A stretch of DNA of 64,000 nucleotides from a virus (IMGVR_UViG_3300036939_000021:1-64000); one strand, 5' to 3'. Positions 336-60,848 are shown, numbered from the stretch's first letter. Made by a program: numbers and translations. Notes: generated from the sequence alone by a model not told the origin.

Positions 336-402
336 TACCACTGGAATAATCGTTAAGACTCTGTGAATCGGGCACAGAGTCTTTTTTTTTTTTGAATATG
401 TC

Positions 403-431
403 TTGACATCTTAGATTTTTATAGTTAAAAT
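403..431 (+). promoter_or_regulatory. sigma70-type early promoter, first of about 25 copies of TTGACA(TCT)-N17-TAnnnT
   Basis: TTGACA 403-408 and TAAAAT 426-431. Other -35 boxes at 789, 1145, 1504, 3150, 3894, 4177, 5040, 5870, 6923, 9977, 10737 (TTGGCA), 11666, 14196, 17476, 20646, 21282, 23038, 26085 (TTGCCA), 26539, 36621, 37618, 38977, 42932, 47348, and minus strand 44822-44827. Confidence 0.85.
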
Positions 432-462
432 ATAGAAAGAGGTTTATACAAGAGAAGAAATA

Positions 463-5932: not shown

Positions 5933-6844
5933 ATGGCTAAAGATAGAAAAGATTCTGGAATGTCTTCAATAGCTAATCGCATATCTGCTTATGCTGTACC
6001 TGTTGATAACATTGTATTTCAAGAAGGATTTTTACAACGAGATGAGATAAACCCTGAAAAAGTTCAAGAAATTAAGCAACAGATTATTGAGCATATTATT
6101 ACAACAAAAAATCAACATCCAAAACCATATGGAATTCACACTCCTATTACTGGTTTTTACATGGATGGAAAATTTCAATTGAATCACGGACATCATCGAC
6201 TAAGCGCTGTCAGAGAATTAAAAAATGATGGCACTTTGGATCGCTTAGTAGCTGAAGGTAAAATCGATGTTGATGATGTTGAACGTATTATCAATATTCC
6301 GGCTACTCGTGTAGCACCTCCAATCGGTAAGACTGAAGAAGAAACAAAACGAGCTGAAGCCTTATTATATCTACGACAAATTGTAGATAATTCCGGTCAG
6401 AATTATAAGCCGTTAGAATGTGCAAGAATTTGTCAATTGGTCGAGACTAAATACGATATGTCTCAAGCTGAGATTGCAAATTTTCTTGGAAAATCTGTTA
6501 GTCAGATCAGTTCTTGGCTAAAGCTCATGGATATGCCTACAGAAATTCAAGAAACAATTTCAGACGGTTCTGTTGCGGCTAGTTACGCTAATGAACTTGT
6601 AAGAGAAGTTGGGCTTGAAAAGGCAACCCAATACTTATTATCAGCGGTAGAGAAAGCTAAAAAAGAAGGAAAGAAAAAAGTCACAAAAAAAGATGTAGAA
6701 GAAGAGATAGGAAAAGCAAAACCTACTAAAAAAGAAATTCGTAATTTGCTTCTAACAATGGAGCGTCAAGATATGGATGGAGGAGTGTCTCAAATACCCA
6801 CAGAAGCTTTAGAGAAGCTTCTAGCTTATGTGGATGTGGTATAA
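5933..6844 (+). CDS. ParB/Spo0J-like protein (ParB-N domain + HTH)
   Basis: GHHRL ParB box; MSQAEIANFLGKSVSQISSWL HTH. ATG 5933 preferred because the TTG at 5870 is the -35 box. Confidence 0.8.
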   Translation: MAKDRKDSGMSSIANRISAYAVPVDNIVFQEGFLQRDEINPEKVQEIKQQIIEHIITTKNQHPKPYGIHTPITGFYMDGKFQLNHGHHRLSAVRELKNDGTLDRLVAEGKIDVDDVERIINIPATRVAPPIGKTEEETKRAEALLYLRQIVDNSGQNYKPLECARICQLVETKYDMSQAEIANFLGKSVSQISSWLKLMDMPTEIQETISDGSVAASYANELVREVGLEKATQYLLSAVEKAKKEGKKKVTKKDVEEEIGKAKPTKKEIRNLLLTMERQDMDGGVSQIPTEALEKLLAYVDVV

Positions 6845-7327: not shown

Positions 7328-7335
7328 AAGCATAA

Positions 7336-7375
7336 AGAACCTACGGAATAATTAATATTATTCCGTAGGTTCTTT
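7336..7375. terminator. terminator hairpin built on an inverted GGAATMAT pair
   Basis: AAGAACCTACGGAATAAT-taat-ATTATTCCGTAGGTTCTT; same design near 9281-9320, 10673-10708, 14114-14166, 15183-15230, 26468-26490, 27122-27164. Confidence 0.8.
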
Positions 7376-7408
7376 ATTAAAAATACTTACAATATTATTC
7401 TAAAAATA

Positions 7409-7909
7409 ATGACAAACTTTAATCGATCTCTGCCAATTATTCAAGGAATATCAGAAAGAATTTACAAACAAACTCCAACACCCATTAATGCTGAAGATTG
7501 CCAGCGTCTAATTAGAGAATTCCGTAATGTTAGTACCGATATTGCTTATCAATTGCAACTTAGAGATAAAGAAGCTGAAGGATATTATCAATGGAAAAAG
7601 ACAGCGCTACATAAACAGCGTATTAAACTAGCGCAAATTACAATTTTACAAGCTTGGTATGCCGAATATTGTAATGAGAATAAAACAAAAAATCAGCAAT
7701 TACAAAAAGAATTAAATAGTTTTGGTATTCAACTTATTACAGATTTAGATGAGGATAATGTAAGCGCTGGTCAAATTAAACGAGAGCTTAAGTGGTTACG
7801 TAGTTGTGTAGGTGCTTTGTATGATGTTGTTTTGAATGATGAATTAGATGATGAAGATGTACGCGAAAAACTAGAAAAATTGGCTGATGCTTTGAATTGG
7901 AGAGAATAA
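7409..7909 (+). CDS. coiled-coil hypothetical protein, C-terminus altered by tnpB insertion
   Basis: Removing 7897-9157 rejoins the frame to NEISSGIVRISEVTKS* (stop 9204-9206). Confidence 0.7.
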   Translation: MTNFNRSLPIIQGISERIYKQTPTPINAEDCQRLIREFRNVSTDIAYQLQLRDKEAEGYYQWKKTALHKQRIKLAQITILQAWYAEYCNENKTKNQQLQKELNSFGIQLITDLDEDNVSAGQIKRELKWLRSCVGALYDVVLNDELDDEDVREKLEKLADALNWRE

Positions 7910-9157
7910 GTGAAACGAAAAGGAGGCAAAAAACAATGCTGGTTCTCGAATATAAAATCAAAGGCAAGCCACAGCAATACAAAGCTATTGATGAAGCTAT
8001 CCGAACAGTGCAGTTCATTCGAAATAAAGCCATTCGCTATTGGATGGATGCACCCAAAGACGCCAAAATCAATCGGTTTACCTTGAATAAATATTCGACC
8101 GATCTACGCAACGAGTTCTCCTTTGTCAAAGATCTTAACTCAATGGCGGTGCAAGCTGCTGCCGAACGTGGGTGGCTTGCAATTTCTCGGTTTTACGACA
8201 ATTGTAAGTCCAAAAAATCAGGTAAAAAAGGTTTTCCTCGCTTCCAGAAAGACAACCGCTCAGTAGAGTACAAAACAAGCGGATGGTCGCTTCATCCTAC
8301 AAAGCGACGGATTATCATCACCGATAAAAAGGGGATTGGTGAACTCAAGCTTTTGGGTAAGTGGGATATTCATCAATATCCTGTAAAGTCCATTAAGCGA
8401 GTTCGTTTAGTCCGTCGTGCCGATGGATATTACTGTCAGTTTGCTGTTGATGTTGACTGCATTAATATTCAGCCAAAAACAGGTCAAGAAATTGGATTAG
8501 ACGTAGGACTAGAATCGTTTTACACAGATTCAAACGGACATCAAGAGCCTAATCCAAAGTTCTTGAAAAAAGCTGAATCTAATATAAAACAGACTCAACG
8601 TCGCATCTACAAAAAAGTTAAAGGTTCAACAAGACGCCGTAAGGCAAGAGCTAGATATTCCAAGAAACACTTGAGAGTAAATAGGCAACGTACCGAACAC
8701 GCTAAGAGACTAGCGCGTCACGTTTGCAAGTCTAATGACTTAGTAGCCTATGAAGACTTAAGGGTAGCGAATTTGCTTAAAAACCACTGTTTAGCTAAGT
8801 CAATTTCTGATGCTAGCTGGTATCAGTTCAGGCAGTGGATAGAGTATTTTGCTACTAAGTTTGGAAGATTAGCTGTTGCCGTTCCACCCCAGTACACCTC
8901 TCAGGAGTGCAGTCAGTGTAAGGCGATAGTCAAAAAATCCCTTAGCACTAGAACTCACGTTTGCTCGTGTGGATTAATTCTGCAAAGAGACTGGAATGCG
9001 GCAATCAATATTTTGCGTAAGGCAAAATCTAGGGGAGGGCATCCCCAAAGTAACGCTAACGGAGTTGGAGCCTCTACGCTACTTGGGGAAACCCTGGTAG
9101 AGCAAGTTCTGACGATGAAGTTAGAATCCCACCCGCTTTAAGCCGTGGGAGTGTCAA
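7897..9157 (+). mobile_element. IS200/IS605-family tnpB-only element
   Basis: Inserted after TTGAA (7892-7896); right end hairpin TCCCAC..GTGGGA followed by GTGTCAA (ends 9157); higher GC than the flanks. Confidence 0.85.
7936..9141 (+). CDS. tnpB: RNA-guided endonuclease TnpB
   Basis: IGLDVG (RuvC-I), YEDL (RuvC-II), CxxC..CxC zinc finger, RDWNAAINIL (RuvC-III); AGGAGG RBS at 7921. Confidence 0.95.
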   Translation: MLVLEYKIKGKPQQYKAIDEAIRTVQFIRNKAIRYWMDAPKDAKINRFTLNKYSTDLRNEFSFVKDLNSMAVQAAAERGWLAISRFYDNCKSKKSGKKGFPRFQKDNRSVEYKTSGWSLHPTKRRIIITDKKGIGELKLLGKWDIHQYPVKSIKRVRLVRRADGYYCQFAVDVDCINIQPKTGQEIGLDVGLESFYTDSNGHQEPNPKFLKKAESNIKQTQRRIYKKVKGSTRRRKARARYSKKHLRVNRQRTEHAKRLARHVCKSNDLVAYEDLRVANLLKNHCLAKSISDASWYQFRQWIEYFATKFGRLAVAVPPQYTSQECSQCKAIVKKSLSTRTHVCSCGLILQRDWNAAINILRKAKSRGGHPQSNANGVGASTLLGETLVEQVLTMKLESHPL

Positions 9158-9332
9158 TGAAATATCCTCTGGCATCGTTAGGATTTCAGAGGTTACGAAA
9201 TCATAAACGAAATTCAAAAGCTCTTTTAGTTGGTCAAACTAAATTAGCTTTAAAGAAGGCTTAAAAATCTTTAAAGAAAAAACACCTTATGGAATCATAA
9301 AGATTATTCCATAGGGTGTTCTGCTATCACTC

Positions 9333-9920: not shown

Positions 9921-10027
9921 AAAATTTTTGAATAAAATTTGAGACACTTCTAGGGAATCATAAGAGGTGTTTTTTATTGACATCTATTAAAATCTGGCAT
10001 ATACTAGAATAGTTGTTAGATAGTTTT

Positions 10028-10654
10028 ATGATGCTAAATTCTAATTTTGATAAAACACTTGAAAATTATATTGAATCTATTGTAGAAATTAATGAAAAAT
10101 TTAATATACATGAATCACATAGATTTACTATTTATTGTTATGGATTGATTGAAGAAGTAGGGGAATTGAGCGGTAAAATAAAACGAGAAATTAGAGATGA
10201 TAAAGATTTATCATCTGATATTCATAAAGAGATTGGCGATATTATTGCTTATTTAATGTTAATTGTACGATGGACACATTTAGAATATTTTTCAACAAAA
10301 AATATTGCAACTTTAATATTTGATGATTTACCGGGTAATATCCAACAATTTAAAAATGAACAAAATAAAAGTGATATACCTATTTTATATATTTTATCGA
10401 AATTAGATGTAGAAAAATCATTTTTAATTTATCTCCTTATGCAATATTCAGAAGCTGATCGAAAAGCACATAAGGGTACAGCAATTTTAGTTGCAACTAG
10501 AGTTCGACAGATGGCAGCAAAGATATTAGCTTATTTAGAAGTGATAGCTTTAAATTTTGATAGTAATCTTGAACAGTGTTTAGATTTAAATATTCAGAAA
10601 CTACAGAGCCGATTCTCTAAAGGTACTTTACATGGTTCGGGTGATAATCGTTAA
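10028..10654 (+). CDS. mazG: MazG-like nucleotide pyrophosphohydrolase (long form)
   Basis: GLIEEVGEL..KIKR.IRD..KEIGDII; C-terminal N..KLQSR...G.LHGSGDNR. Confidence 0.8.
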   Translation: MMLNSNFDKTLENYIESIVEINEKFNIHESHRFTIYCYGLIEEVGELSGKIKREIRDDKDLSSDIHKEIGDIIAYLMLIVRWTHLEYFSTKNIATLIFDDLPGNIQQFKNEQNKSDIPILYILSKLDVEKSFLIYLLMQYSEADRKAHKGTAILVATRVRQMAAKILAYLEVIALNFDSNLEQCLDLNIQKLQSRFSKGTLHGSGDNR

Positions 10655-10790
10655 GACTTATTAGGACAACAGAGAACACACGGAATAATAGATTATTCCA
10701 TGTGTTCTTTTTTATTTGAGAAATTTATATAAACTATTGGCATCTATTAGAAAATAGCATATACTAAAAGAGTACTTAACGACAAAGCAT

Positions 10791-11211: not shown

Positions 11212-11547
11212 ATGGAATTAAGTGATTATCAAGTACAATCTATATCTACGGCTATTTATCCAGGGAAGAAAACTATTAACGGTTTAGCTTATGCGACTTT
11301 AGGCTTAGTTGGGGAAGCAGGAGAAGTTGCAGAAAAAGTTAAAAAGATTCTTAGAGATAAGCAAGGTATTTTAGATGCTGAAACTAAGCAAGCTTTGCAA
11401 AAAGAATTAGGTGATGTTTTATGGTATCTAGCTGCTATAGCTACAGAACTTGATTTATCTTTAGATGATGTGGCTTTAATGAATCAGCAAAAATTACAAT
11501 CACGAAAATTAAGAAATGCTTTAAGCGGTAATGGAGATAACCGTTAA
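11212..11547 (+). CDS. mazG: MazG-like nucleotide pyrophosphohydrolase
   Basis: LGLVGEAGEVAEKVKKILRD..KELGDVLWY..N..KLQSR..GNGDNR. Confidence 0.92.
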   Translation: MELSDYQVQSISTAIYPGKKTINGLAYATLGLVGEAGEVAEKVKKILRDKQGILDAETKQALQKELGDVLWYLAAIATELDLSLDDVALMNQQKLQSRKLRNALSGNGDNR

Positions 11548-14103: not shown

Positions 14104-14260
14104 ATGTGAGTAAAATTCAAAAACCTTATGGAATAATTTATATGATTCCATAAGGTTTTTGAATTTTGTTCTAAAAAGTTATTTTAAATATATTCTTGAC
14201 ATCTTAGATTTTTATTGTCATAATATAGGAGTAGCGAGGAAATCGAAAAGATTCTAAAAA

Positions 14261-15170: not shown

Positions 15171-15236
15171 TCAACAAAGGATAAAAAACAAACCCCTGGA
15201 ATAATCGATTATTCCAGGGGTTTGTTTTTTATCTTT

Positions 15237-15470
15237 TTACAAGTCGTTATTGAGTTTTTCTGATTCTTTCTTTATCATTTCTCTTTGATCAACACGTTTA
15301 CTTTCCATAGATAGATATACAGCCATAGCATTACGCTCTTGTACTTCAAGTCTCAATCCTTTTAGTAATAAAAGACTTGCCATACCAGATCGACTCTCAC
15401 CAGATTCTTCAGCCAGTTTTTTTAAAAAAACTAGAGTCTGATTTGTTACAGTAATTGAAATTTGTGGCAT
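15237..15470 (-). CDS. ribbon-helix-helix (CopG-like) regulator
   Basis: QISITV..LKKLAEESGESRSGMASLLL; divergent from the 15632 operon. Confidence 0.75.
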   Translation of the reverse strand: MPQISITVTNQTLVFLKKLAEESGESRSGMASLLLLKGLRLEVQERNAMAVYLSMESKRVDQREMIKKESEKLNNDL

Positions 15471-18272: not shown

Positions 18273-19883
18273 ATGAAAACCGCACATACGATAAAAGAAC
18301 AACACCGAAACGCTTTATTAACAAATTGGATTCTACTGATAGCTAGTACCATATTTTTTCTGGCAGGACTAATCGATCATAGTAAAAATAAAAATATAAG
18401 TTTTAGATTATTTCTTGCAGGAACCTTAACTGCTGGAGGTTCAGTAATAACAGCAGAATTATCTAAGAGTATTAGCGCTCGTGCAAGGGTACAGCAAGAA
18501 TCTGACAAAAAAGGACTTGAACGTCAAATTAATCGTGAGCTGAAACTTGATGAAATGATTGCAAGTATTAAAACTCAGCAAAAGCTTGCGGAAATCGTAG
18601 AATTTACCGTACCAGATTATCAACAGCCACGTATTATAAAACAGTTTCGTTTAGAAGGAATGCTACCTCCTAATAATTCTAGGGGTGTAAGTCAAGAGTC
18701 CACACCGGAATCATCGAGAGGTTTTCAAGTAGCTTTACAGCCTGTAAAAGAATTAGTGGATGCTAAGACTAGAGATTTGATTGATATATCTTGGTTTAAT
18801 GAGAACGTTTATTTTGGTGGAGGAGTAATAGTAGGAGCAAAAGGAAGTGGTAAAACAGATTTACTTAAATTTATTGTTCTTAATATTTTACGATTGTGTC
18901 CTGATGTTAATCTTAAATTTTATAATATCCACTATGTAAAAGGAAAAACTAAATATTTTGAAGGAATGGATCGAGAATATGAAGAAAATTTATTTATTAC
19001 AGAACCACAAGAAATATTACGTGATGCAGAAAAATGTTATGCTGAGTTGCAAAAAAGAGAAAAAATTGGGGATATGTCTAGCCCCCCGATTGTTAGAATC
19101 CTGGACGAGCAAAAAGCTACTTTGGCTGAACTTGGTAATGAATTTGATCGATTAATTTTTGTTTTAAAAGAATTAGTTGATAGAGGTCGTAAGTATGGCA
19201 AGCAAGTTGTAAACGAATCAGGTACTAAATTTGATACAGGTTTTGTAGTTTGGCTTGCTTTGCATAATCCTAAAAAGGAAGTGAGCAAGATTGACAGCAG
19301 TTGGTTTGAGGAAAATGTATTTTTATTAGGAAAAACAATTAGTAATCCTAGTTCGCCTTTTCCTGCGGATTTTGATAGAAAAACTTTGCTTACACAACTT
19401 AATGCTACTAATTCTTTACTTGAGGCTAACAAACTTAAATTTGTGGGAGAGCCTAAAAACGATTTAGCACGAGCTTGTGTTTTTAGACTAAAAGATGATG
19501 AACCGTGTATCAAAATTATTCCAAGGTTTAATCTTGATAATATTGCTTACAGCGGTTCTGGAGTCGTACAGAAAGGAGAAGAAAAAGAAACACCGGAATC
19601 ATCAACAGTTACAGAAACTCCTGAATATAAAGGAGAGTACAATGCTCTTGATGCTAGTGGAGATACTTGGATTGAAAAAATAGTAAATTGGTTTAAAACT
19701 AATTCGGATGTTGATAATGAGATATTGAGAGAACAAGTAAATATAGTAAGAAAAAATTTAGTGGATTCTAGCCAGTATGCTCCTTTAACCGATGCTCAAT
19801 TATTTGAGCTTCGAGAACTTTTAGAACAAGAAATTAATGGTACAGAAGATAATGAGGAAAATATATCAGAAGATGAACAATGA
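18273..19883 (+). CDS. membrane-anchored FtsK/VirD4-like P-loop ATPase
   Basis: Two N-terminal hydrophobic segments; Walker A GAKGSGKT; Walker B RILDE; GRKYG arginine-finger-like motif. Confidence 0.7.
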   Translation: MKTAHTIKEQHRNALLTNWILLIASTIFFLAGLIDHSKNKNISFRLFLAGTLTAGGSVITAELSKSISARARVQQESDKKGLERQINRELKLDEMIASIKTQQKLAEIVEFTVPDYQQPRIIKQFRLEGMLPPNNSRGVSQESTPESSRGFQVALQPVKELVDAKTRDLIDISWFNENVYFGGGVIVGAKGSGKTDLLKFIVLNILRLCPDVNLKFYNIHYVKGKTKYFEGMDREYEENLFITEPQEILRDAEKCYAELQKREKIGDMSSPPIVRILDEQKATLAELGNEFDRLIFVLKELVDRGRKYGKQVVNESGTKFDTGFVVWLALHNPKKEVSKIDSSWFEENVFLLGKTISNPSSPFPADFDRKTLLTQLNATNSLLEANKLKFVGEPKNDLARACVFRLKDDEPCIKIIPRFNLDNIAYSGSGVVQKGEEKETPESSTVTETPEYKGEYNALDASGDTWIEKIVNWFKTNSDVDNEILREQVNIVRKNLVDSSQYAPLTDAQLFELRELLEQEINGTEDNEENISEDEQ

Positions 19884-20005: not shown

Positions 20006-20380
20006 ATGACGAATAAGAAACCAAAGTATGAATATGACTATCGTTATCCGCCGAATTGGCAACAAATTACTAGGAATATTCTTGACACGTATAAAGTATG
20101 TGCGTTGTGTCATAAAAATCCTAGTAAAGAAACTCATCATATGTTTTATAGAAAAAGTAGAGGTAGTGGTGATTTATTGCTAGCAGATGCTAAAGTACTA
20201 AATCACCTAATTCCTTTATGTCTTATTTGTCACAAAAAAGCCCATCAAATTAAAGGAAGAAATGGTAAAAATAAAATAACTTATATTTTACATCCTGATG
20301 ATAATTCAAAAAATCGTAATACTTCTGCTTTTGTAAAACAATTACAGGTGAGTTTTAAAATTTTGTATGGAGATAAATAA
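20006..20380 (+). CDS. HNH endonuclease-like protein
   Basis: YPPNW..CALC..THH..LIPLCLICHKKAH. Confidence 0.75.
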   Translation: MTNKKPKYEYDYRYPPNWQQITRNILDTYKVCALCHKNPSKETHHMFYRKSRGSGDLLLADAKVLNHLIPLCLICHKKAHQIKGRNGKNKITYILHPDDNSKNRNTSAFVKQLQVSFKILYGDK

Positions 20381-21614: not shown

Positions 21615-22445
21615 ATGGAATCATCAACAATACTTACAGCTGATCCTATTGTGAAATGGGCAGGAGGAAAAAGAGCTATTAAAGAAAAAATTAAACAATA
21701 TTTCCCTAAAGATTTTCAGACTTATATAGAGCCGTTTTGTGGAGGTGCTGCTATTGCTTTAAGTATGGGTTTAGATAATGTTGTAATAAATGATATAAAT
21801 GCAGATTTGATTAATGTGTATCTATATTTAAAAGATAGTATGAAATATAAATATCTAATGTATTATCTTGAATATTGGCAAAGTAATAATAATTATTTAT
21901 CTGAAAAGTTTTATTATAGATTGCGTACTGCTTATAATAAACATAATGATAAATTAGTAAATGCTGCCCAATTCATAGCACTCAATAAACTAGGATATAA
22001 CGGATTATTCCGTGTGAATTCTAAGGGTGAGTTTAATGTACCTTGGGGTAAGCGTTCTGCTAGTACTAAAATATATGAGCCAGAAAAAATAGAAGCTATT
22101 CACAAAAAATTGCAAACTATCCAAATTTATAATAAAAATTATTGGGAGCTTGATTATAAAGCCAGAGATTTTGTATATCTTGATCCTCCATACGATACGG
22201 ATAAACAAAACTTTACTTCTTATAATTCTGGGGTGTTTAGTAAGATTGAACAAGCAAATTTAAGTGTTTTTTGTTCTTTTCTTACTAATGATGGTGTTAG
22301 ATTTTGTCAGTCTAATGCCGATACGGAATTTATCCGAGAACTCTACAAAGATTTTAATATTTATGAGATTGAAGCACCTAGACGAATTGCTTGTAATGGT
22401 GATAGAACGAAAGCTAAGGAAGTACTAATTACAAATTATGTCTGA
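21615..22445 (+). CDS. dam: D12-class (Dam-like) N6-adenine DNA methyltransferase
   Basis: KWAGGK, YIEPFCGGAA, INDIN, YNGLFRVNSKGEFNVPWG, YLDPPY. Confidence 0.92.
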   Translation: MESSTILTADPIVKWAGGKRAIKEKIKQYFPKDFQTYIEPFCGGAAIALSMGLDNVVINDINADLINVYLYLKDSMKYKYLMYYLEYWQSNNNYLSEKFYYRLRTAYNKHNDKLVNAAQFIALNKLGYNGLFRVNSKGEFNVPWGKRSASTKIYEPEKIEAIHKKLQTIQIYNKNYWELDYKARDFVYLDPPYDTDKQNFTSYNSGVFSKIEQANLSVFCSFLTNDGVRFCQSNADTEFIRELYKDFNIYEIEAPRRIACNGDRTKAKEVLITNYV

Positions 22446-24898: not shown

Positions 24899-25930
24899 CT
24901 ATTTTTTAGGTCTTAAAGAAGGTGTATAGAAGGACTCTTGAACACTCCAACCTTTCTTTAATCTATAAATAATGCCACTAGGTGTTACTAGAGGTGGTTT
25001 ACCTTCTTGAGTAAGAATATAAATCCATTCACTTAAACATTTAGTTTCACCTCGATATGTAATTAAAAAACTATTTCGTTTGTTCCATGTATTTTCTCTC
25101 ATTGTCGTGTAAATACAATTCTCTTTATAATATCCGTCCATATTATTGACTCTTTCAATTGTTAAACCTTTAGGTCTTTCTCCCATATCTTCTAAAAAAT
25201 TTTCAAATTTGAGCCACCTATCACAAACAGTAATACCTCTACCTCCATAGTTATGATAAGCTTGACTTTTTGGATCAAAGCAACGATCAATCATAGATCG
25301 CCATGTTTTATAAGTACGACTATATTTAGATCCTTGTCTAACAATTGAAGTATGACCATGAATTATTGATCTATTAATACATTCTTTACTAAGAAAATTA
25401 CCACAACTTTTTGTATTACCTTTAATTAAATTTTGGTAAGAAGGTGTCGTTATAGCTCCACAGTCACATATGCATTTCCAGTGTATAGCATTATCTTTAT
25501 TTAATTTTGCTGGTATTATTTCTAAAGCTATTAATCGACCAAAACTTTGACCTTTAATATCAGGCTCTTTTCTTGTTTTTTCACATCCACATGATTTGAT
25601 ATATTTTAAATAGTTTGTCGTGATTAACCGAGTTGTTCCGCATTTACATTGACATTCCCAAATATATTCTTTCCCTTTTTTATGATCTAGTTTTAAAACT
25701 GTCCACATACCAAAAACTTTACCAACAATATTAGGAGTATCTTTACGTATACATCCACAACATTTACTAGAGCCTGTTTTAAGACTTGATAATAAAACAG
25801 TTCTGATAGTGCCACATTCGCATTGACATCTCCAATATTTTCTAATAGAATCACTTTTTTCTTCATCAAAATTTAAAACTGTCCACATTCCGAAAGTCTG
25901 ACCTGTTAAATCAATCAATTTTCGTGGCAT
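24899..25930 (-). CDS. HNH homing endonuclease with 3 Cys-rich N-terminal repeats
   Basis: 3x G..FG...L..W.C.C.CG; YGGRGITVCDRW..F..DMGERP...TIERVNN..GY...NC. Confidence 0.88.
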   Translation of the reverse strand: MPRKLIDLTGQTFGMWTVLNFDEEKSDSIRKYWRCQCECGTIRTVLLSSLKTGSSKCCGCIRKDTPNIVGKVFGMWTVLKLDHKKGKEYIWECQCKCGTTRLITTNYLKYIKSCGCEKTRKEPDIKGQSFGRLIALEIIPAKLNKDNAIHWKCICDCGAITTPSYQNLIKGNTKSCGNFLSKECINRSIIHGHTSIVRQGSKYSRTYKTWRSMIDRCFDPKSQAYHNYGGRGITVCDRWLKFENFLEDMGERPKGLTIERVNNMDGYYKENCIYTTMRENTWNKRNSFLITYRGETKCLSEWIYILTQEGKPPLVTPSGIIYRLKKGWSVQESFYTPSLRPKK

Positions 25931-26438: not shown

Positions 26439-26601
26439 TCTTTCAAAAGCTACAGAAAACAATCAAATCGGAATCATTAATGATTCCGATTTTTTTTTAT
26501 CGTTCTGAATTTTTATAAAAATATTTTTAGAATATGCATTGACATCTTAGATTTTTATTGCCATAATTAAGGAGTCGGAAGAAAAGCTGAGAGCTAAGAA
26601 A

Positions 26602-27102: not shown

Positions 27103-27176
27103 AAATTAAATAATCACAAAAAAAACCTACTGGAATCATAAAGATTATTCCGATGTGGGTTTTTTTTTCTGCTGTT

Positions 27177-29726: not shown

Positions 29727-29740
29727 ATTTACAATATTCC
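29727..29740 (-). promoter_or_regulatory. late-gene motif GGAATATTGTAAAT
   Basis: Same motif as at 49454, 53209 and 54105; about 25 nt before the ATG. Confidence 0.65.
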
Positions 29741-35364: not shown

Positions 35365-35410
35365 ATCTGTTATAGTTGTACTAACACTAGTATAGCAAGA
35401 GTTAGTAGAA

Positions 35411-35557
35411 ATGACACGTTTATCAGAGAAAATTTTGACGATTCGCATACCAGATATAGAGATGCAACTGTTAACTGAGTATTGCAAGCAAACAAAAAGG
35501 ACAAAGACCGATGTGGTAAGGGAACTTATTCGATCCTTGTCACAAAAAGGTACTTGA
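35411..35557 (+). CDS. CopG/RHH small protein divergent from tnpB
   Basis: Manual translation LTIRIPD.E...L.EYC.QT.RTKTDVVRELIRSL. Confidence 0.75.
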   Translation: MTRLSEKILTIRIPDIEMQLLTEYCKQTKRTKTDVVRELIRSLSQKGT

Positions 35558-38194: not shown

Positions 38195-38623
38195 ATGCAA
38201 ACATTTCTTCCTTATCCTGACTTTGTTAAATCTGCTGAATGTCTTGATAGACAAAGATTAGGTAAACAACGAGTCGAGTGTTTACAACTTCTTAATGCTA
38301 TTGCGGGAACTTCTAAAGGTTGGATTAATCATCCTTGTACCAAAATGTGGAAAGATTACCCAGAAGCATTAGTGCATTATTCCGTTGTAATTTGTTTTGA
38401 GTGGCGATCTAGAGGTTATAAAGATTCTTGTTTAGAAAAAATAGAAAATTTAGGACAGCAACAAAACTGGAAAATAGAACAAGATATTTTAAAATATCCT
38501 TCTTGGATAGGTAGAGAAGACGTACACGCTTCACATCGATCGAATTTACTTAGAAAACTTCCTGATCATTATCAGCAGTTTGGATGGAGTGAACCGGATA
38601 ATCTACCTTATATCTGGGTTTAA
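38195..38623 (+). CDS. pyrimidine-dimer DNA glycosylase-like protein (MSMEG_6728/DenV-like)
   Basis: MQTFLPYPDF..SA..LD.QRLGKQRVE..GW.NHP..KMW..HASHRSNLLRK. Confidence 0.85.
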   Translation: MQTFLPYPDFVKSAECLDRQRLGKQRVECLQLLNAIAGTSKGWINHPCTKMWKDYPEALVHYSVVICFEWRSRGYKDSCLEKIENLGQQQNWKIEQDILKYPSWIGREDVHASHRSNLLRKLPDHYQQFGWSEPDNLPYIWV

Positions 38624-39315: not shown

Positions 39316-40317
39316 TTAAGCGGCTAATGTTTCCTTAGCGAATAGATATGATTCCAGTTGTTCTTTCTTTTCTGGTACATACTCAAGCCATACCTTACCA
39401 CATTCTTGTTTCATCTCTATAGAAAACTGAAAGTCTATAAAATTCTCGCTAGGTGCTGGATGTTGTTTTTTAGAATAATCCTGATAAGGATTGGTTAGTA
39501 CACGATAGAGTTTTTCTGGAAGTGTCTTTTGAAATTGTTGATAAGACTTTTCCCAATTTGCAATTGCTGTTTGAATGTCTTCCTCATAGTCTTCATCTTC
39601 TAATTGCTCTTGTGTGACTTGAGTGAAGCCATAGGAAAAGAGATCAATTTGTTCGCCAGTAAATAAAGTATCGATGAGTTTTAGAAATAATCCTTGTCGC
39701 TTTTGCTCTAATTGGTGTTCCTCGTATTCTTCTTGAGTCATATTTTCAACGGATTTAAATCCATTTTGACTGAGAAAGGGTGAGTACTCATCGCCTCTGT
39801 AATTGATGATTTCTAAGAAACGCATTTTATGGAGAGGCATAGGATACGCCCAAGGTTCAATAGTTTTGATTTGATTGTCTTTAGCTGCAAGAGCTTTTTG
39901 TAGTTCTACTACCGTTTGTCGTAATTCCTCAAGTTCACCTCCAACGTTCTGATACTCAGTAACAACAGCTTGCGATGATACACCCTCAAGCATAACTACT
40001 TTATCTTTACCGAGTTTCTTAATGACATCGATAACCCATAAACGTAATTCAATATTTGACCAGTAACCAAAATCAATCACCATTTCTTCCGTTCCCCAAG
40101 TCCCTCCATATTTGCCTTTTTGGACATCTAAAACTTTACCTTTAGTTTTTTCTAAAGCTCTTGTTAACGCTAAAGTATTCTCATTTCGTAAATAATTTCC
40201 TATTAAAGTATTGGTACTTTTTGCCATATCTGTTAAACATCCCCAAATAGAACCATCATCTCTTGTTTCAAAACGGATATTTTTACCTTGAAATTCTTGT
40301 GTAATAATATTTGACAC
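39316..40317 (-). CDS. KilA-N domain protein
   Basis: GCLTDMAK..NYLR..T..GGTW..V.DFGYW. Confidence 0.85.
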   Translation of the reverse strand: MSNIITQEFQGKNIRFETRDDGSIWGCLTDMAKSTNTLIGNYLRNENTLALTRALEKTKGKVLDVQKGKYGGTWGTEEMVIDFGYWSNIELRLWVIDVIKKLGKDKVVMLEGVSSQAVVTEYQNVGGELEELRQTVVELQKALAAKDNQIKTIEPWAYPMPLHKMRFLEIINYRGDEYSPFLSQNGFKSVENMTQEEYEEHQLEQKRQGLFLKLIDTLFTGEQIDLFSYGFTQVTQEQLEDEDYEEDIQTAIANWEKSYQQFQKTLPEKLYRVLTNPYQDYSKKQHPAPSENFIDFQFSIEMKQECGKVWLEYVPEKKEQLESYLFAKETLAA

Positions 40318-42137: not shown

Positions 42138-42857
42138 ATGTCAGTTATTCAACAATGGCAGGGATCGGATATAAGATTTGAGACGCGTAAGGATGGACGT
42201 GTTTGGGGATGCCTTACAGATATGGCACAAGCAACAGGCAAACTAGTAGCCGATTATCTACGTCTTGTATCTACCCAAGATTATTTACAAGCTTTATCAG
42301 ATGATATGGGAATCCCCATAGCTAACATACTTTATGCTATTCCAGGTCAAAAAACAGGAACTTGGGCTATTGATGAAGTAGTAATAGATTTTGCACAGTG
42401 GTGCAATGTAAAGTTTCGGATTTGGGTGAATCGTGTTATTCGGAGTTTGATTATAGAGAAATCAGCATCATTTTTAGATGATTCTGTAGAAGAAAAAGCT
42501 TTATCGATGATTAGCAATTTAATTAATCAGATGGAAGCAAGTGTGAGTGATCCGTTAGCTGTTAGTCGTTATGGTAAGGCTATTGATGTTTTGAATGTAA
42601 CATTACATCGTAATCAAACGGCAATGTTAAAGGATATCAAAACTAACTCTGTTTCTGATTTCTTAGAACAACACGTAGAAGAGTTTAAAGGAGAGAAGAT
42701 GATAGCGAAAGACTTGTATCACAGTTATTGCCGTTTTTGCTTAAAAAATAAATATACAAAAGAGACATTAACATCTTTTGGTAAATATGTTAGTACAGTG
42801 TATGAAAAACATCGTACAAATAAAGGAGTAATTTATTTAGATATGCGGTTAAAATAA
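42138..42857 (+). CDS. KilA-N domain protein with C-terminal winged-helix (primase D5_C-like)
   Basis: GCLTDMAQATGK..DYLR..GTW..FAQWC; DLYHSY..FC..T.TSFGK. Confidence 0.8.
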   Translation: MSVIQQWQGSDIRFETRKDGRVWGCLTDMAQATGKLVADYLRLVSTQDYLQALSDDMGIPIANILYAIPGQKTGTWAIDEVVIDFAQWCNVKFRIWVNRVIRSLIIEKSASFLDDSVEEKALSMISNLINQMEASVSDPLAVSRYGKAIDVLNVTLHRNQTAMLKDIKTNSVSDFLEQHVEEFKGEKMIAKDLYHSYCRFCLKNKYTKETLTSFGKYVSTVYEKHRTNKGVIYLDMRLK

Positions 42858-44912: not shown

Positions 44913-45659
44913 ATGGTTGAATTATTAAAAGATCCATATTTTCGAGTACAACTAGATAAAGATGCAAGTTCACCTAATCCGGAAGCTGCGATATGGAATG
45001 CACAACATATTTGTGTAGCTGAGAAAGATTCTTATCATGATCAGCTACCTTTAGAACCTGGAAAAGCAATAATAAAACATCAATTAGAAGGTGGAAAGGG
45101 TCACTATTCAGTAGCTGCTTTTGCTTTTGCAAAAATAGATTTTTATGGTTTCTCGCATGATGCTATTATGCAGATGAGAACTCATCACACTAGTGGTAGT
45201 GATGTAAGATTTCTAGTACAAAGTTCTCGTTATACTTCTCAGAGATTTATAGATGTAGCTGAAGGAAAACTAAAACCAGAGGAAGTATTTTATTGGCGTC
45301 CTTTAGGAAAATATACAAGTCGTAATGGTTGGTATGAAAATAGTGATTTAGTACAGAATATTTTTTATGAGCAATGTAGAGAAAATTGTAAAGTCTATGC
45401 TGATTTAGTTTTAGAGTACAATCAACCTTATGAACAGGCAAGAAACGTACTTTCACAAGGAATACGACAAGATTTCACAATAGCAGCAACGTTAAAAGGA
45501 TTTTGGCATTTACTCGATCAAAGAACAAAAAAAGATTCTCAACTAGAAATTCAAACTTTAGCAGAAATGTTACAGCAAGAATTAGAAAAATGGTGTCCTA
45601 CACTTTCTTATTGGTACAGAGAGAATCATATTAAAAAATCTAAGAAATTATTACCTTAA
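44913..45659 (+). CDS. thyX: FAD-dependent thymidylate synthase ThyX
   Basis: GHYS..; Q.RTH..F.VQSSRYT; EQAR.VL; LDQR....SQLEIQ.LA. Confidence 0.88.
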   Translation: MVELLKDPYFRVQLDKDASSPNPEAAIWNAQHICVAEKDSYHDQLPLEPGKAIIKHQLEGGKGHYSVAAFAFAKIDFYGFSHDAIMQMRTHHTSGSDVRFLVQSSRYTSQRFIDVAEGKLKPEEVFYWRPLGKYTSRNGWYENSDLVQNIFYEQCRENCKVYADLVLEYNQPYEQARNVLSQGIRQDFTIAATLKGFWHLLDQRTKKDSQLEIQTLAEMLQQELEKWCPTLSYWYRENHIKKSKKLLP

Positions 45660-45665
45660 AACAAG

Positions 45666-46196
45666 ATGACTATATTAGTTGACTGGCAGATAAGACAAGA
45701 AGCCTTACGAAATAATTTAGTAGTGCCTTTTGATGAGGAGATGCTCAATCCTTGTTCTATTGATGTGAGAGTAGGACATACAGCAAAACTTCGGATAGTT
45801 GGAGGATGGCAAGATATAGAATTAGCACATTATGGGGAAACATTTCCTTATATGCTTTATCCAGGAGATAGAGTTTTAATAGCTAGTTTAGAGACTTATA
45901 ATTTTTCTGAAAATTTAGCTGGACAGTTTAAATTAAAATCTAGTCGAGGTAGAGAATGGTATGAACATTTAGAAGCGGGATGGATAGATCCAGGATGGCA
46001 CGGAAGTAAATTAACAATGGAAATTATTGCAATGGATGTATCACCATTGCCTTTATATCCAGGTTTAAGAATGGGTCAAATAATATTTTTTAAATTAGAT
46101 GAAATACCAGAGAAATCTTATAGTGTGACTGGAAAGTATAATAATGATGTAACGGTACAAGAGAGTAAAGATAATATTTTTAGTATAAAATATTGA
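45666..46196 (+). CDS. dcd: dCTP deaminase
   Basis: NPCSIDVRVG; KSSRGR; AGWIDPGWHG.LTMEI; GQIIF..Y..KY. Confidence 0.92.
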   Translation: MTILVDWQIRQEALRNNLVVPFDEEMLNPCSIDVRVGHTAKLRIVGGWQDIELAHYGETFPYMLYPGDRVLIASLETYNFSENLAGQFKLKSSRGREWYEHLEAGWIDPGWHGSKLTMEIIAMDVSPLPLYPGLRMGQIIFFKLDEIPEKSYSVTGKYNNDVTVQESKDNIFSIKY

Positions 46197-56488: not shown

Positions 56489-59146
56489 ATGCCTTTACCT
56501 ACAACAGCTAAAAAAGGTACTACATTTAACTTTGAAATAGTGGCAGTGTTAGATAAAGATTATCCTAACGCTATTTTAGTTTATTATGGTGAAGCTACAG
56601 AATATAATCATAAAAAACGTGAAACATTTACTTTAGGTTCTGTACCTAATCAAGGTATTACATTAAAATCAAAAGTTCAATCTTTAGGGCAATATACTTA
56701 TATCTGGAAAGTTGAAATAGTTGATAGCATTACTTCTAATTTAACAAAAACAGAATTTCAAACTTACTGTAAAATATTTTTAGATCAATATCGTTCTATT
56801 GAGATTGAGCGACAAATTTTAACATTAGAAGATAGTAAACCTTATATCAATCCTTTTATTATTTTTGATGTCGTTGTTCCTGATGTTCCTATTAATCAAA
56901 ATCCTTTAATTTCTATTACATCGCCTATATCCGGTGTTTCAATTGTTGCAGGAACATTAATAACAATTACAGCACAAGCATCTGATTCAGATGGGACAGT
57001 AGCCAGTGTTAGTTTTTATGCTAATAATATTTTAATAGGAACCGATACAACATCACCCTATTTTATACCTTGGACACCTACACAAGGAAATTATAATTTA
57101 ACTGCTAGAGCAACAGACGATAAAGGTGCTATAACAACTTCTGCTATTATTCCGGTTGTTGTTTCTGCTTCTTCTACTCCGACACCTACAGAGCCTATTT
57201 TAAGAAGTGAAGCAAATTTATTAGGAATAAATATTCCTGCAATGGGGGATTATTTTGCACCATATTTTAGAGATGCTGCAAGACAGTCACGACCCTATGA
57301 GGCAATAGGGGGAGGAGTTATAGCAAAAAATGCTAATGGTTATCCGACTGTTGCAAACTTTCAAGTTTATATATGGGCAGGAGGATATAAAAGACATGGA
57401 ACATATTTTATAGAAATATTACATTCAGATTCTTATTCTGGTGAAGGTATTTTAGATAGATTAGGTGGAGAGTTATCTAATATTATTTACGATATAAATA
57501 TTAATAAAACTACAGCAACTTGGATACATACAAATCCTGATGAATCTGTAGGAATGTTAATATTTCAAGGATTTACTGGAGGGATAACACATTTAAAAGT
57601 TTTGCGTCCTTCAAGTTCGGGTAGTAATATACCTTACGATGAATCTAAGATTTTTATGGATTCTATCGTAGATATTATGGGTAAGTTTGATGGAGCAAGA
57701 TTTTTAGATACAACGGGCGTAAATAGTTCTAGTATTCGTACTTGGAATCAAAGAACTTTAATTACCGATTATTCGCAAGCTAGAGATCAAGGAGAACCTG
57801 AATCAGGTTTTGGATTTGCTGGACGTGGATTAGCTTGGGAATACGTTGCAGATTTAGCCAATGAAGTAAAAGCAAAATATCCAAGTTTTAAAGCAATATG
57901 GATAAATATTCCGGTACTTGCTGATAATGATTATGTACTACAGTTATTTACTTTATTAAAAACTAGATTAAACACCGGAATAATAGTACATTGCGAATTT
58001 GGTAATGAAAACTGGAATTATACAAGACCTTTTTTACACGCTGAATATAATAAAAATGAAGCAGTTTTAGATGCACAGAAACCAGGTAGTTTATTAGTTT
58101 TTGATGGAAATACTGGTGAGTACACATTATCTTGGAGAAGGCAAGCTTTAAGAACTATTGAATTTTATTCTATTGCTCAAACAGTATGGGGAGCTGATGT
58201 AGATAATAAAATTCAATTTCAACTTCAATGGCAACAAAGAAATGGGCAAAACACTGCTGGTGTGATGCTCTCTTTTGTTGATAAAGCTTTGAATGCTCTT
58301 GATATTATTGGAAAATTTGGTTTAGGTGGAAGTTGGTATTATAACCCTATTCATAACGATCCAAATTTAACTATAGATAATATTTGGAATTCAGGTACTA
58401 TGAATTCTGAAACATGGGCAAATGAATGGTTACAGACTGATGTAGATTGGGTTACCGCATATTCTAAACCTAATGGTTTTTTACAATGGAATGGGTATGA
58501 GGGTGGTACAAGTTTTGATAAAGTATTTGAAAGTTTAGAGACGACTAAAGAAGTTGCAGATAAAAATAATGCAATAATGAAACTTGCAAATTATGATTCC
58601 AGAATGACAACTAATCATGTAGAACATATAGATATGGGTTCAAAACATGGTCGTAACTGGAATTATTGTTATAAGTTAGGGGGTGCAAGAGAAAATCAAT
58701 ATGAATGGGCATATTTATATAATCACGATGACTTTAATACACCTAAAATCAATGCAATAGATATTCTTAGATCTAGAAACAGGGCTGCTTTAACATATGG
58801 TAGAATTGTACCTTTTATTATTAATGCTGGATTGTATTCTATCAACGACAAAGGATATGGTGATAGAATTGATGGTGATTATAAATTAGATGGTGAGGAA
58901 ACTGTTAGTTATACGTTTAGGGTAGTAACAGCAGGAAACTATACATTCAGTTTTGTTTCTAATGATACTAATAGTTATAAGATTTTATTTGGTACAACAG
59001 TTTTAAATAATAATATTAATGCATTAGCAAATCAGAGTATAGAACCTATTATTATTAATTGTCCAAATAGTGGATTATATGCAATTAGAATAAAAAATTT
59101 ATCAACAGGTCAAGCATATTTAAAAGAAATTTCTATACAGGTTTAA
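56489..59146 (+). CDS. virion protein: Ig-like (Big) domain + glycoside-hydrolase-like barrel + CBM-like C-terminus
   Basis: ASDSDGTVASVSFY..DTTSPY..LTARATDD.G; RFLD..WEY..DLANE..WINIP..EFGNENWN; YEGG. Confidence 0.7.
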   Translation: MPLPTTAKKGTTFNFEIVAVLDKDYPNAILVYYGEATEYNHKKRETFTLGSVPNQGITLKSKVQSLGQYTYIWKVEIVDSITSNLTKTEFQTYCKIFLDQYRSIEIERQILTLEDSKPYINPFIIFDVVVPDVPINQNPLISITSPISGVSIVAGTLITITAQASDSDGTVASVSFYANNILIGTDTTSPYFIPWTPTQGNYNLTARATDDKGAITTSAIIPVVVSASSTPTPTEPILRSEANLLGINIPAMGDYFAPYFRDAARQSRPYEAIGGGVIAKNANGYPTVANFQVYIWAGGYKRHGTYFIEILHSDSYSGEGILDRLGGELSNIIYDININKTTATWIHTNPDESVGMLIFQGFTGGITHLKVLRPSSSGSNIPYDESKIFMDSIVDIMGKFDGARFLDTTGVNSSSIRTWNQRTLITDYSQARDQGEPESGFGFAGRGLAWEYVADLANEVKAKYPSFKAIWINIPVLADNDYVLQLFTLLKTRLNTGIIVHCEFGNENWNYTRPFLHAEYNKNEAVLDAQKPGSLLVFDGNTGEYTLSWRRQALRTIEFYSIAQTVWGADVDNKIQFQLQWQQRNGQNTAGVMLSFVDKALNALDIIGKFGLGGSWYYNPIHNDPNLTIDNIWNSGTMNSETWANEWLQTDVDWVTAYSKPNGFLQWNGYEGGTSFDKVFESLETTKEVADKNNAIMKLANYDSRMTTNHVEHIDMGSKHGRNWNYCYKLGGARENQYEWAYLYNHDDFNTPKINAIDILRSRNRAALTYGRIVPFIINAGLYSINDKGYGDRIDGDYKLDGEETVSYTFRVVTAGNYTFSFVSNDTNSYKILFGTTVLNNNINALANQSIEPIIINCPNSGLYAIRIKNLSTGQAYLKEISIQV

Positions 59147-59150
59147 ATTA

Positions 59151-60848
59151 ATGGTTATTCTATACAATAAACAAGGTATTTCGGTTGATGTTCCTGAAGG
59201 AGCGGTTGAACAGGCTTTAAATGAAGGTTTTACTAGAGATTTTCCTACTTTAGCTGTTTTAATAAAAAACTATAATCCTAATGTTAATCAGGATGAAATA
59301 CCTGTAGATATACAAGGAACGTTAAAACAAGTAGAATTTATTTTACAAAATCGTTCGGATACTGTTATTAATGTTCGTTATGGCGATACAGGTAGTGAAA
59401 CTAATATACCTGGAGGTGTACCTGCTAATGGTAAATTAAGATTTACTGCTTTTTCTGGTACAACACAAGTAAGTAGTTTACCTACGGTCTTAGTAACTTC
59501 TTCTGATTCTGATAATTTTGTAGAGTTAGAAAAATTTATTATATTTACAGCTACGCAACAAAAAAGTGGAACTATAACAAAAGTTGAGTTTTATTCTGGT
59601 GCAAGATTATTAGGTACTGTAGTATCAGCACCTTATACACTACAGCATACTTTTACAGCTACAGGAAAATATAAAATATACGCACGTTGTTATAGTGGTA
59701 CTGATTATACAACGAGTAATTTTTTAGATGTTTTTGCCATACCTAATAGAAGACAAGATCGAAATTTTACTCCTACCGTAACGCTAACAGCACCAAACAC
59801 CGGAATAATAAATCAAGCTGTTTTATTACAAGCGATTGCTACAGATTTAGATGGTACGGTTAATAAAGTTGAATTTTATTCTAATGATTTAAAAATAGGC
59901 GAAGATATAACAACACCATATTCTTTAAGTTATACTTTTGTTACTGGTGGAACTTATGTAGTAAAAGCAAGAGTTTATGATAATTTAGGTGCAACATCAG
60001 AATCTAATATTATACAGATTGTTATTTCAGCACCTTCTGTTCCTATTCCTACAATTTCTGTAACAGCACCAAGTACAGCTAATACAAATACCGCTCTTAC
60101 TTTAAATGCTACTGCAAGTATTACAGGAGATACGATAGCAGGTGTTCAATTTTTAGTAAATGGTATTAATCAAGGTAGTGCTGATACAACATCACCTTAT
60201 TCCATAAGTTGGACTCCTACCACACCGGGAAATTATACAATTACTGCTATTGCAACCGGAGTTTTAGGAGGTAGTGCTACAAGTGCAGGAGTAACGGTAA
60301 CGGTAACAACCCCAGCTGTACCAACTCCTACAATATCTATTGCTAATACAACACCAAAAGCAGGATTAATAAATGAAGTTTTTATAATAACCGCAACAGC
60401 AGCTTTAACAGGAGATACATTAACTTCTGTTCAATTTAGAGTTGATGGATCGAATATAGGAAGTCCGGATACAGTAGCACCTTATAGTTTAAGTCATACT
60501 TTTACAACAAAAGGTATTAAGCAATTATCAGCTATTGCTTTAGGTTCTCAAGGTGGAACAGCAACATCAGCTAACTACTCTATACAAATATTTGACTCAA
60601 AGGTCGTTGGTGGAGGTGCTGGTGCTGGTGGTGCTTCCTTAGGTGCTGATCCTGCCGATTTTATGTTATTTGACACTAATTTAGCTGGGGGCAATGCTTC
60701 AACTATGGCGATATTCGTAGGAGCAACACAAGTGGGGGCATTTAATTATGATGATACAAGTTATGCAGGTAAACCTTTTGCTTATTTTCATAATGCAACT
60801 AGCACTATGTACACAGGAACTATTCAACCTACTGTTAACTTTTCCTAA
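59151..60848 (+). CDS. virion protein with four tandem Ig-like (Big) domains
   Basis: 4x V.F....+G.D...PY.....T..G.Y. Confidence 0.8.
   Translation: MVILYNKQGISVDVPEGAVEQALNEGFTRDFPTLAVLIKNYNPNVNQDEIPVDIQGTLKQVEFILQNRSDTVINVRYGDTGSETNIPGGVPANGKLRFTAFSGTTQVSSLPTVLVTSSDSDNFVELEKFIIFTATQQKSGTITKVEFYSGARLLGTVVSAPYTLQHTFTATGKYKIYARCYSGTDYTTSNFLDVFAIPNRRQDRNFTPTVTLTAPNTGIINQAVLLQAIATDLDGTVNKVEFYSNDLKIGEDITTPYSLSYTFVTGGTYVVKARVYDNLGATSESNIIQIVISAPSVPIPTISVTAPSTANTNTALTLNATASITGDTIAGVQFLVNGINQGSADTTSPYSISWTPTTPGNYTITAIATGVLGGSATSAGVTVTVTTPAVPTPTISIANTTPKAGLINEVFIITATAALTGDTLTSVQFRVDGSNIGSPDTVAPYSLSHTFTTKGIKQLSAIALGSQGGTATSANYSIQIFDSKVVGGGAGAGGASLGADPADFMLFDTNLAGGNASTMAIFVGATQVGAFNYDDTSYAGKPFAYFHNATSTMYTGTIQPTVNFS

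Follow-up and report, generated by a model that had tools for sequence, protein, structure and literature searches.

An apparently lineage-private, highly iterated DNA word in a 106-kb phage genome

The complete virus record IMGVR_UViG_3300036939_000021 (105,884 bp, 32% GC, direct terminal repeats, CheckV 100%), whose first 64 kb (64,000 nucleotides) form the window analysed here, carries a short, asymmetric and AT-rich word, YGGAATMAT (Y, C or T; M, A or C), dispersed over both strands. Highly iterated words, such as the palindrome HIP1, uptake sequences and Chi, are known from cellular genomes, and the function of HIP1 is not settled. The virus described here has an apparently private word at HIP-like density, which differs from the HIP1 of its relatives and from the candidate host genomes searched. 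With about even confidence, we consider YGGAATMAT to be private to one phage lineage, in which some ongoing process, most probably positive selection for its presence in phage DNA, maintains about one copy per kilobase. In the window and beyond, the word is distributed as follows:

343–59809, both strands: dispersed GGAATMAT, 70 copies (core YGGAATMAT, with a weak 5′ CAC extension); 45 more copies at 64001–105884

Definition, enrichment and placement of the word

In 100 dinucleotide-preserving shuffles of the window, GGAATMAT occurs on average 6.99 times on both strands (s.d. 2.58, maximum 12), as against 70 exact copies in the window itself. This agrees with an earlier note on the window, made from the sequence alone, which had claimed at least 60 exact copies where about 8 would be expected; all positions that it cited match, its 20602 being 20603 and its 57976 being 57977. 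The whole genome contains 115 copies (1086 per Mb), and a check of strand polarity over its full length, which the same note had proposed, gives 62 copies on the plus strand and 53 on the minus strand, with no switch at any point. An order-2 Markov model predicts 7.5 copies of GGAATAAT and 3.5 of GGAATCAT in the genome, which contains 77 and 38, respectively. The reversed word, a composition-matched control, is found 6 times in the phage, as against 107 times for the true word.

All eight positions of GGAATMAT are strict or near-invariant. At position 6 the enrichment amounts to 10-fold for A, 11-fold for C and 3-fold for T, and G is not accepted. The word is preceded by C or T in 107 of the 115 copies, and the preference for CAC further 5′ is weaker; ACACYGGAATMAT has 16 copies in the genome, 9 of them in the window. 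Pooled one-off variants are near expectation (191 observed, 163 expected).

Seventy of the 115 copies (61%) lie in coding sequence and occupy all reading frames, where they encode the xESS, GII, IIP and DDS peptides listed in the earlier note. These comprise 34 sense and 36 antisense copies, as against 9.8 and 6.4 in synonymous-codon shuffles and 4.8 and 3.6 in codon-order shuffles, so that the enrichment persists under the codon-aware null that the note had suggested (70 coding copies versus 16 or 8 expected). The excess of the word is not codon- or protein-driven. Taking into account the balance between sense and antisense copies and the presence of copies in every frame, a cause at the RNA or peptide level is therefore excluded.

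The 15.6 kb of intergenic DNA contain 43 copies, about threefold the density of coding sequence. Both strands are balanced in each 5-kb bin of the genome, and the spacing of the word is Poisson-like (coefficient of variation of 0.91 versus 0.98 for random placement), with about one copy per 1.9 kb in each orientation. Regular spacing and exclusion zones were considered and rejected, the variation in spacing being about random and the largest gap equal to expectation. The word is absent from the 59.8–65.2 kb stretch and from two genes:

7897–9141, plus strand: tnpB gene without the word, with motif hairpins at 7332 and 9281 on either side
34156–35487, minus strand: second tnpB gene without the word

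The absence from the tnpB elements and from 59.8–64 kb had been pointed out in the earlier note and is real; read as exclusion it does not hold, since the 5.4-kb empty stretch is the largest gap expected for random sites (mean 5.2 kb). The TnpB protein encoded at 7897–9141 shares 80% identity with a TnpB on a contig of a Symploca metagenome-assembled genome (L086) that also encodes a 38%-identical terminase, which hints that this element may have passed between distantly related cyanophages.

A strict asymmetric 8–9-mer able to act singly, placed in Poisson-like fashion in either orientation, is what would be expected of a Chi-like word. Such a word would attenuate or redirect a host or phage helicase-nuclease at phage DNA ends, thereby protecting the DNA and stimulating recombination-dependent replication, both orientations being needed since ends arise anywhere; the phage indeed encodes RecD-like SF1 and SNF2-like helicases. 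However, genomes of the host family show no enrichment (see below), the phage proteins scanned include no RecB or AddB-type nuclease, and the palindromic double sites described below are left unexplained. In addition, recBCD is patchy across cyanobacteria and absent, for example, from Anabaena sp. 90 (PMC5101192). A Chi-like role thus seems rather unlikely.

Comparison with orthologous genes gives an indication of how the sites arose. Every motif site examined in genes with orthologues aligns to the relatives without gaps, as illustrated by TPESS, DDDSS and NIIPALW in the phage, which face EPQEE, DDLSQ and NIAPGLW, respectively, in relatives. Several of the word-making substitutions are non-synonymous and replace residues that are invariant in six relatives. 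On these alignments, the word appears to be written into genes by point substitution and not by insertion. Genes common with HIP1-type relatives contain the word at 0.97 per kb and the remaining ones at 0.68 per kb, and this high density in shared and unshared genes alike argues that the process acts genome-wide, whatever the ancestry of the module.

The flanks of the copies are unique past about 13 bp, four 20-bp hairpin tops excepted, which argues that the word is not a mobile repeat. REP elements (repetitive extragenic palindromes), MITEs (miniature inverted-repeat transposable elements) and other small dispersed repeats were rejected on the same grounds, together with the gap-free alignment to orthologues.

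Double sites at the tops of hairpins

Ten close pairs of words are present in the genome, seven of them in the window and three beyond. All ten are convergent (GGAATMAT, 2 or 4 bases, ATKATTCC) and none is divergent. The pairs cap long and almost perfect hairpins that lie between A and T tracts, and the inverted pairs in at least seven terminators described in the earlier note are thus recovered. Those of the window are the following:

7332–7377: long hairpin with 21-bp arms and a convergent pair at its top
9281–9320: hairpin whose top is the 20-bp unit GGAATCAT-AAAG-ATTATTCC
10673–10708: hairpin with a pair, spacer of 2
14112–14167: pair on a hairpin with 26-bp arms; a TTGACATCT promoter follows 54 bp downstream
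15176–15237: pair around ATCGAT on a hairpin whose 31-bp arms were called with one mismatch allowed; terminator score on both strands
26465–26492: hairpin with a pair; terminator score on both strands
27132–27151: pair with a shared AAAG loop in an imperfect hairpin

Terminator scoring is positive for the hairpins at 7333, 15183 and 26465, for the last two on both strands. All seven window pairs are intergenic; pairs inside genes are two, one at 96160 in the primase gene of the phage and one at 2901/2921 in the polymerase gene of a second viral contig, L160 (see below). The double sites look constrained. The word is present on 10 of the 31 long hairpins of the genome, which shows that the hairpins do not need it, and 95 of the 115 copies are single, most of them (85 or so) without even a degenerate partner and a few with a partial one.

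Three hairpins (at 9291 and 27132 in the window and at 87344 in the genome) share an identical 20-bp top with the same C–T mismatch on unrelated lower stems, and the top of a fourth, at genome position 72993, is the GGAATAAT variant of this unit. The shared tops suggest either copying or a constrained double site. Together with the few singles that have partial partners and the motif hairpins on both sides of the first tnpB element, they would be consistent with the word having spread with a small mobile or copy-pasted palindromic unit that seeded terminators, the coding copies being decayed or chance derivatives. This explanation has, however, very little probability: the 70 coding copies align to orthologues without indels, their flanks soon become unique, some 85 singles have no partner and the word occupies only a third or so of the long hairpins.

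The promoter named in the list above is of the sigma-70 type and consists of TTGACATCT, 17 bases and tATAaT, frequently with a GGAG ribosome-binding site after it. About 30 copies (29 exact and one TTGACATCC variant) stand at the heads of early and middle transcription units. Exact copies of TTGACATCT, the second most over-represented word of the genome (29 versus 1.0 expected), number 23 on the plus strand (20 of them in the window, at 403–42932) and 6 on the minus strand (one in the window).

Candidate hosts and related phages

The gene set of the phage includes a T4-type large terminase, tail protein J, the two TnpB proteins, a sigma factor and nucleotide-metabolism genes. Its replication module consists of a family A DNA polymerase, an SNF2-like helicase, a RecD-like (SF1) helicase and a D5-like primase-helicase. 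No nucleotide-level match to the phage is present in the phage collection. Relatives of its terminase (about 60% identical) sit in Nostocales assemblies (Aetokthonos, Nostoc, Tolypothrix and Dolichospermum) and both TnpB proteins are closest to cyanobacterial TnpB; the host is therefore probably a filamentous cyanobacterium. The scans of host genomes covered species-representative genomes.

In 389 Nostocaceae genomes of 3–12 Mb, the 12-mer CACYGGAATMAT occurs at most 12 times per genome, as against 24 times in the 0.106-Mb phage. The core 9-mer reaches 34–47 per Mb in four Nostocales genomes whose assemblies contain related phage contigs, versus about 1010 per Mb in the phage, and these values, about 1.2–1.7 times those of reversed-word controls, are near background. 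In nine of the Nostocaceae genomes, counts of the core or of an 11-mer are also at background, and so is the word in the five smallest genomes of the family. None of 401 sampled Cyanobacteriia genomes contains the hairpin pair more than once, as against ten pairs in the phage. A tag of the host genome is rejected on these background levels, and the equal frequency in host DNA that the earlier note had named as the outcome refuting its own proposal is not seen in genomes of the host family.

A variant of this idea places the tag, uptake-sequence-like or HIP-like, in a true host outside the searched genomes, mirrored by the phage as its relatives mirror the HIP1 expected of cyanobacterial hosts. 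The 32% GC of the phage and its lack of HIP1 hint at an unusual host, and HIP1 is lost in symbiotic Nostocales such as Richelia, according to Elhai. Such a host is nevertheless highly improbable: even the smallest Nostocaceae species genomes have the word at background, hairpin pairs are unused in the Cyanobacteriia sample, and the word coexists with HIP1 in L160, a contig of 41.6% GC, which argues that it does not track host type.

Three complete contigs of relatives, 104–118 kb in length (L215–L232; from Aetokthonos, Tolypothrix and Nostoc assemblies), contain the word 0–3 times and HIP1 69–102 times. Contigs whose polymerase is 47% identical to that of the phage carry HIP1 only. Close relatives (terminase 84% or 70% identical, polymerase 70–76% identical) were seen as proteins only; the full protein sets span 67–84% identity for the terminase, 55–76% for the polymerase and 45–63% for the ParB-like protein. 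Replacement of HIP1 by the word at the same positions was considered and rejected, with 0 coincidences in orthologues versus 1.1 expected; so was the possibility that each relative has a word of its own, the other top 8-mers (CCTGATGG, GAATCTGT, GGCAGAAG and GGAAACCG) being local tandem repeats. HIP1 stands at the top of only 1 of 80 hairpins of the relatives.

HIP1 in the three relatives' contigs reaches about 0.6–1 per kb, 60–85 times over expectation, and several of its sites occupy a codon position common to the three contigs, such as terminase residue 322. This density and these shared codon positions indicate that HIP1 has been installed or kept in phage genomes. That Nostocales phages gather HIP1 at about one per kilobase, at sites conserved between phages, bears on the origin of HIP1.

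The viral contig L160 (9.3 kb, with a polymerase 52% and a helicase 42% identical to those of the phage) contains GGAATCAT 10 times, about once per kilobase, versus 0.33 expected, as well as four HIP1 sites. It also has a bidirectional terminator with the same kind of top (GGGAATCAT-CG-ATGATTCCC). The word sites of its polymerase gene are at positions other than those in the phage polymerase gene, which argues that the word is older than its individual sites and is kept while the sites turn over; its coexistence with HIP1 at 41.6% GC further indicates that the word is independent of HIP1 status and GC content. Scans for further carriers gave nothing comparable. The hairpin pair matches 117 loci of IMG/VR, nearly all of them single chance matches, L160 alone being real; the 20-bp hairpin top gives one chance match (L234); polymerase profiles retrieve HIP1-type relatives only from IMG/VR and JGI metagenomes; and a scan with an L160 protein returns L160 itself only. 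As far as these sequences go, the word appears restricted to one phage lineage.

The resemblance to HIP1 raises the possibility of a HIP-like by-product, in which a methylation-linked or otherwise biased repair or gene-conversion drive, after Elhai's HIP1 model, would turn near-matches into a functionless word, for example through the D12 methyltransferase of the phage and a repair nuclease. HIPs occur at 500–2500 copies per Mb (PMC4390886), a range that includes the 1086 per Mb of the word. The relatives carry HIP1, of which the phage has none, at similar density, the word-making substitutions override conserved residues, and the phage encodes two HNH nucleases in addition to the methyltransferase. 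Against this, the described HIPs are all GC-rich palindromes with a cognate methyltransferase, unlike the AT-rich and asymmetric phage word. Near-matches that differ at one position show no depletion, the scanned proteins include no Vsr-like gene product, and a drive would not predict the strict geometry of the convergent pairs. A repair drive is thus an unlikely source of the word.

Of the 145 phage genes, 35 are common to the three relatives' contigs; they comprise packaging and structural genes and a sigma/PAPS-reductase block, and the remaining genes (about 110) have no homologue there. The genome thus has a mosaic structure, with the structural/packaging genes and the sigma/PAPS block shared with HIP1-type Nostocales phages and a replication module shared with a different set of contigs, L160 and L209–L213. 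A five-gene block at 59151–64000 of the window, continuing to genome position 64697, is likewise without homologue in the relatives; with 42% GC, versus 32% for the genome, it could represent a tail-fibre or host-range cassette of recent acquisition. UV-repair and nucleotide-pool genes at 38195–38623, 44913–46196, 10013–10654 and 11212–11547 encode a DenV-like pyrimidine-dimer glycosylase, ThyX, a dCTP-deaminase-like protein and two MazG pyrophosphohydrolases. Genome-wide, GGCC occurs once in 105.9 kb (about 69 from a composition estimate), CGATCG twice and HIP1 not at all; GATC, with 224 copies, is not avoided. GGCC counts vary among the relatives (3, 19 and 84), and its near-absence from the phage suggests avoidance of a GGCC-cutting restriction system.

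Candidate readers and comparison with known iterated words

The persistence of the word in a second, diverged phage and the substitutions that override protein conservation point to a specific reader, putatively encoded by the phage lineage itself. Genes that could provide this reader, and one locus that is disfavoured, are listed below:

5933–6844, plus strand: ParB/Noc/KorB-like protein, candidate reader, with a GxxRxxA-type box (GHHRVxA) and a ParB helix-turn-helix
18273–19883, plus strand: ATPase, candidate reader, whose N-terminal part is a long helical region and whose fold is FtsK/EccC/TcpA-like (Pfam FtsK_SpoIIIE, 2e-6)
21615–22445, plus strand: D12-class N6-adenine DNA methyltransferase (3e-54), whose gene starts with ATGGAATCATCA
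29729–31326, minus strand: PAPS-reductase-like gene and its upstream partner, disfavoured as reader, kept in relatives without the word
39316–40317, minus strand: KilA-N domain protein, possible DNA-binding reader
42138–42857, plus strand: KilA-N and winged-helix (Pox_D5/RFX-like) protein, possible DNA-binding reader

The sigma factor, the PAPS-reductase-like gene and its partner are kept in phages that lack the word, which removes them as specific readers. The ParB/PAPS-reductase pair (30631–31326 and 29729–30634), one of the candidates of the earlier note, is indeed 38–64% identical in the three relatives without the word. The comparison with non-carriers leaves early and replication genes, among them those of the ParB-like protein, the two KilA-N proteins, the D12 methyltransferase, two HNH nucleases and the FtsK-like ATPase. 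The other two candidates of the note, the ParB-like and FtsK-like proteins, stay possible only because they belong to the part of the genome that is not shared with non-carriers. The self tag that the note had proposed therefore holds as far as a genome-wide, DNA-level and phage-owned word is concerned, on the codon-aware null and the host comparison, and its list of candidate readers is tenable only in part.

The larger HNH endonuclease (343 residues, 24899–25930, minus strand; phrog_374, 4e-82) adjoins the large terminase and is not in the three HIP1-type relatives. A small second HNH-like gene lies at 20006–20380.

The helix-turn-helix of the protein at 5933–6844 matches Spo0J (1e-9), Noc (3e-9) and KorB (9e-4). 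Homologues of this protein are absent from the three relatives without the word, and a scan of IMG/VR with a ParB-like profile gave no match. The ParB family makes use of dozens of dispersed sites, as with Noc and KorB, and P1 ParB reads asymmetric heptamer boxes both singly and in inverted pairs. Moreover, ParB-family proteins load at specific sites and then slide over about 1–2 kb, a distance that matches the spacing of the word. On these grounds the ParB-like protein is ranked first among the possible readers, as a tentative candidate of fairly low probability.

FtsK-type translocases read 8-bp asymmetric words. The word could thus serve the FtsK/TraB-like ATPase at 18273–19883 in the manner of the FtsK-orienting polar sequences (KOPS), the SpoIIIE recognition sequences (SRS) or the TraB recognition sequence (TRS) repeats of Streptomyces, such that the pump would load only on phage DNA. 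The predicted fold of this protein matches the FtsK, EccC and TcpA motors, in line with its Pfam match, and its gene lies within the non-shared part of the genome. However, the word has no polarity, no Ftsk_gamma or winged-helix domain was detected in the ATPase, and three C-terminal helices have low confidence in the predicted structure (pLDDT, the per-residue confidence score, of about 50–60). A scan of IMG/VR with an FtsK-like profile retrieves a single locus, L233 (IMGVR_UViG_3300035686_000005), with a 34%-identical homologue; its different, palindromic and mainly intergenic word neither supports nor excludes a link. On balance, a recognition word for the ATPase is improbable. The word of L233 itself, CTAAAGTWACTTTAG, occurs 20 times in 21.5 kb (L233:301–20681), with 12 copies in the 9% of intergenic sequence at gene boundaries, and may be a regulatory box.

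The preferred explanation, positive selection for YGGAATMAT in phage DNA, would operate as follows. A sequence-specific protein would read the word as DNA, binding single sites and pairing up on the convergent double sites. This reader would be encoded in the early/replication part of the genome, which relatives without the word do not share, and the word would mark phage DNA as ‘self' for it. A ParB-like protein that loads at one word per kilobase and slides could coat the whole phage genome, and such coating might serve compartmentalization, protection or global transcription control. Placing pairs in terminator stems would add two copies at little cost, away from coding sequence, an argument already made for uptake sequences.

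Several points weigh against this explanation. Only one other carrier, the 9.3-kb contig L160, was found. The ParB-family sites known to us are palindromic and much sparser; in the phage, 95 of the 115 copies are single words resembling half-sites, mostly without a degenerate partner, and a rigid dimer would not readily accommodate spacers of both 2 and 4. Finally, a neutral conversion drive would equally explain substitutions that override protein conservation.

A broader and more doubtful proposal is that a portable module comprising a reader, and perhaps a writer, lets a virus install a HIP-like word of its own. HIP1 would have been swapped for a private nine-base word. Its copies, about 100, would serve as loading sites for a ParB/Noc-like protein with a CTP switch (or another protein), which would coat the entire viral chromosome and mark it as self. 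If so, this phage would offer a compact and tractable model in which to approach the question, now 30 years old, of the purpose of highly iterated words. More generally, its 106-kb genome is a practical place to learn what such words do.

A search of the literature for the word itself returned noise only, and no description of such a word was found in the literature searched. Among known systems, the uptake-sequence analogy drawn in the earlier note holds for density, strand symmetry and terminator pairing. Like the word, the DNA uptake sequences (DUS) of Neisseria and the uptake signal sequences (USS) of Pasteurellaceae are asymmetric words of 9–12 bp that occur about once per kilobase on both strands, without polarity, within genes and as inverted pairs in terminators. 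Unlike it, they are features of competent bacterial genomes and serve the uptake machinery of the same cell as recognition sites, whereas the phage word is absent from candidate hosts and the phage proteins scanned include no competence DNA receptor.

The same note had also likened the word to HIP1 (GCGATCGC), but it does not fit this family, being neither palindromic nor GC-rich nor a feature of host genomes. What HIP1 and the alternate HIPs have in common with it is density (1086 per Mb for the word, within their 500–2500 per Mb), the presence of HIP1 at about 0.6–1 per kb in related phages where this phage has its word, and a function that is likewise unsettled. HIPs are, however, GC-rich palindromes with cognate methyltransferases and a property of host genomes; the AT-rich, asymmetric word appears phage-private and its sites do not coincide with those of HIP1.

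Sites of the ParB family (Noc-binding sites, KorB operators and P1 ParB box A) resemble the word in that the phage encodes a ParB/Noc/KorB-like protein, that dozens of sites are dispersed and that inverted double sites are intergenic, upstream of promoters. They differ in being far fewer per kilobase and mostly palindromic, with 13–16 bp, whereas the phage copies, whose binding is putative, are mostly single and inside genes. Like the word, Chi, KOPS and SRS are strict and asymmetric octamers for which one site is enough, but they are strand-polarized, strongly and towards a terminus in the FtsK-type words KOPS, SRS and AIMS, and enriched in a cellular genome, and the phage word is neither. 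Stoperators, the phage-private asymmetric words of Cluster A mycobacteriophages, are about 13 bp long, and a phage protein recognizes them at tens of positions. They are intergenic and oriented with transcription, whereas the phage word is 61% coding and neutral in orientation; like it, they are phage-private asymmetric words dispersed over the phage's own genome.

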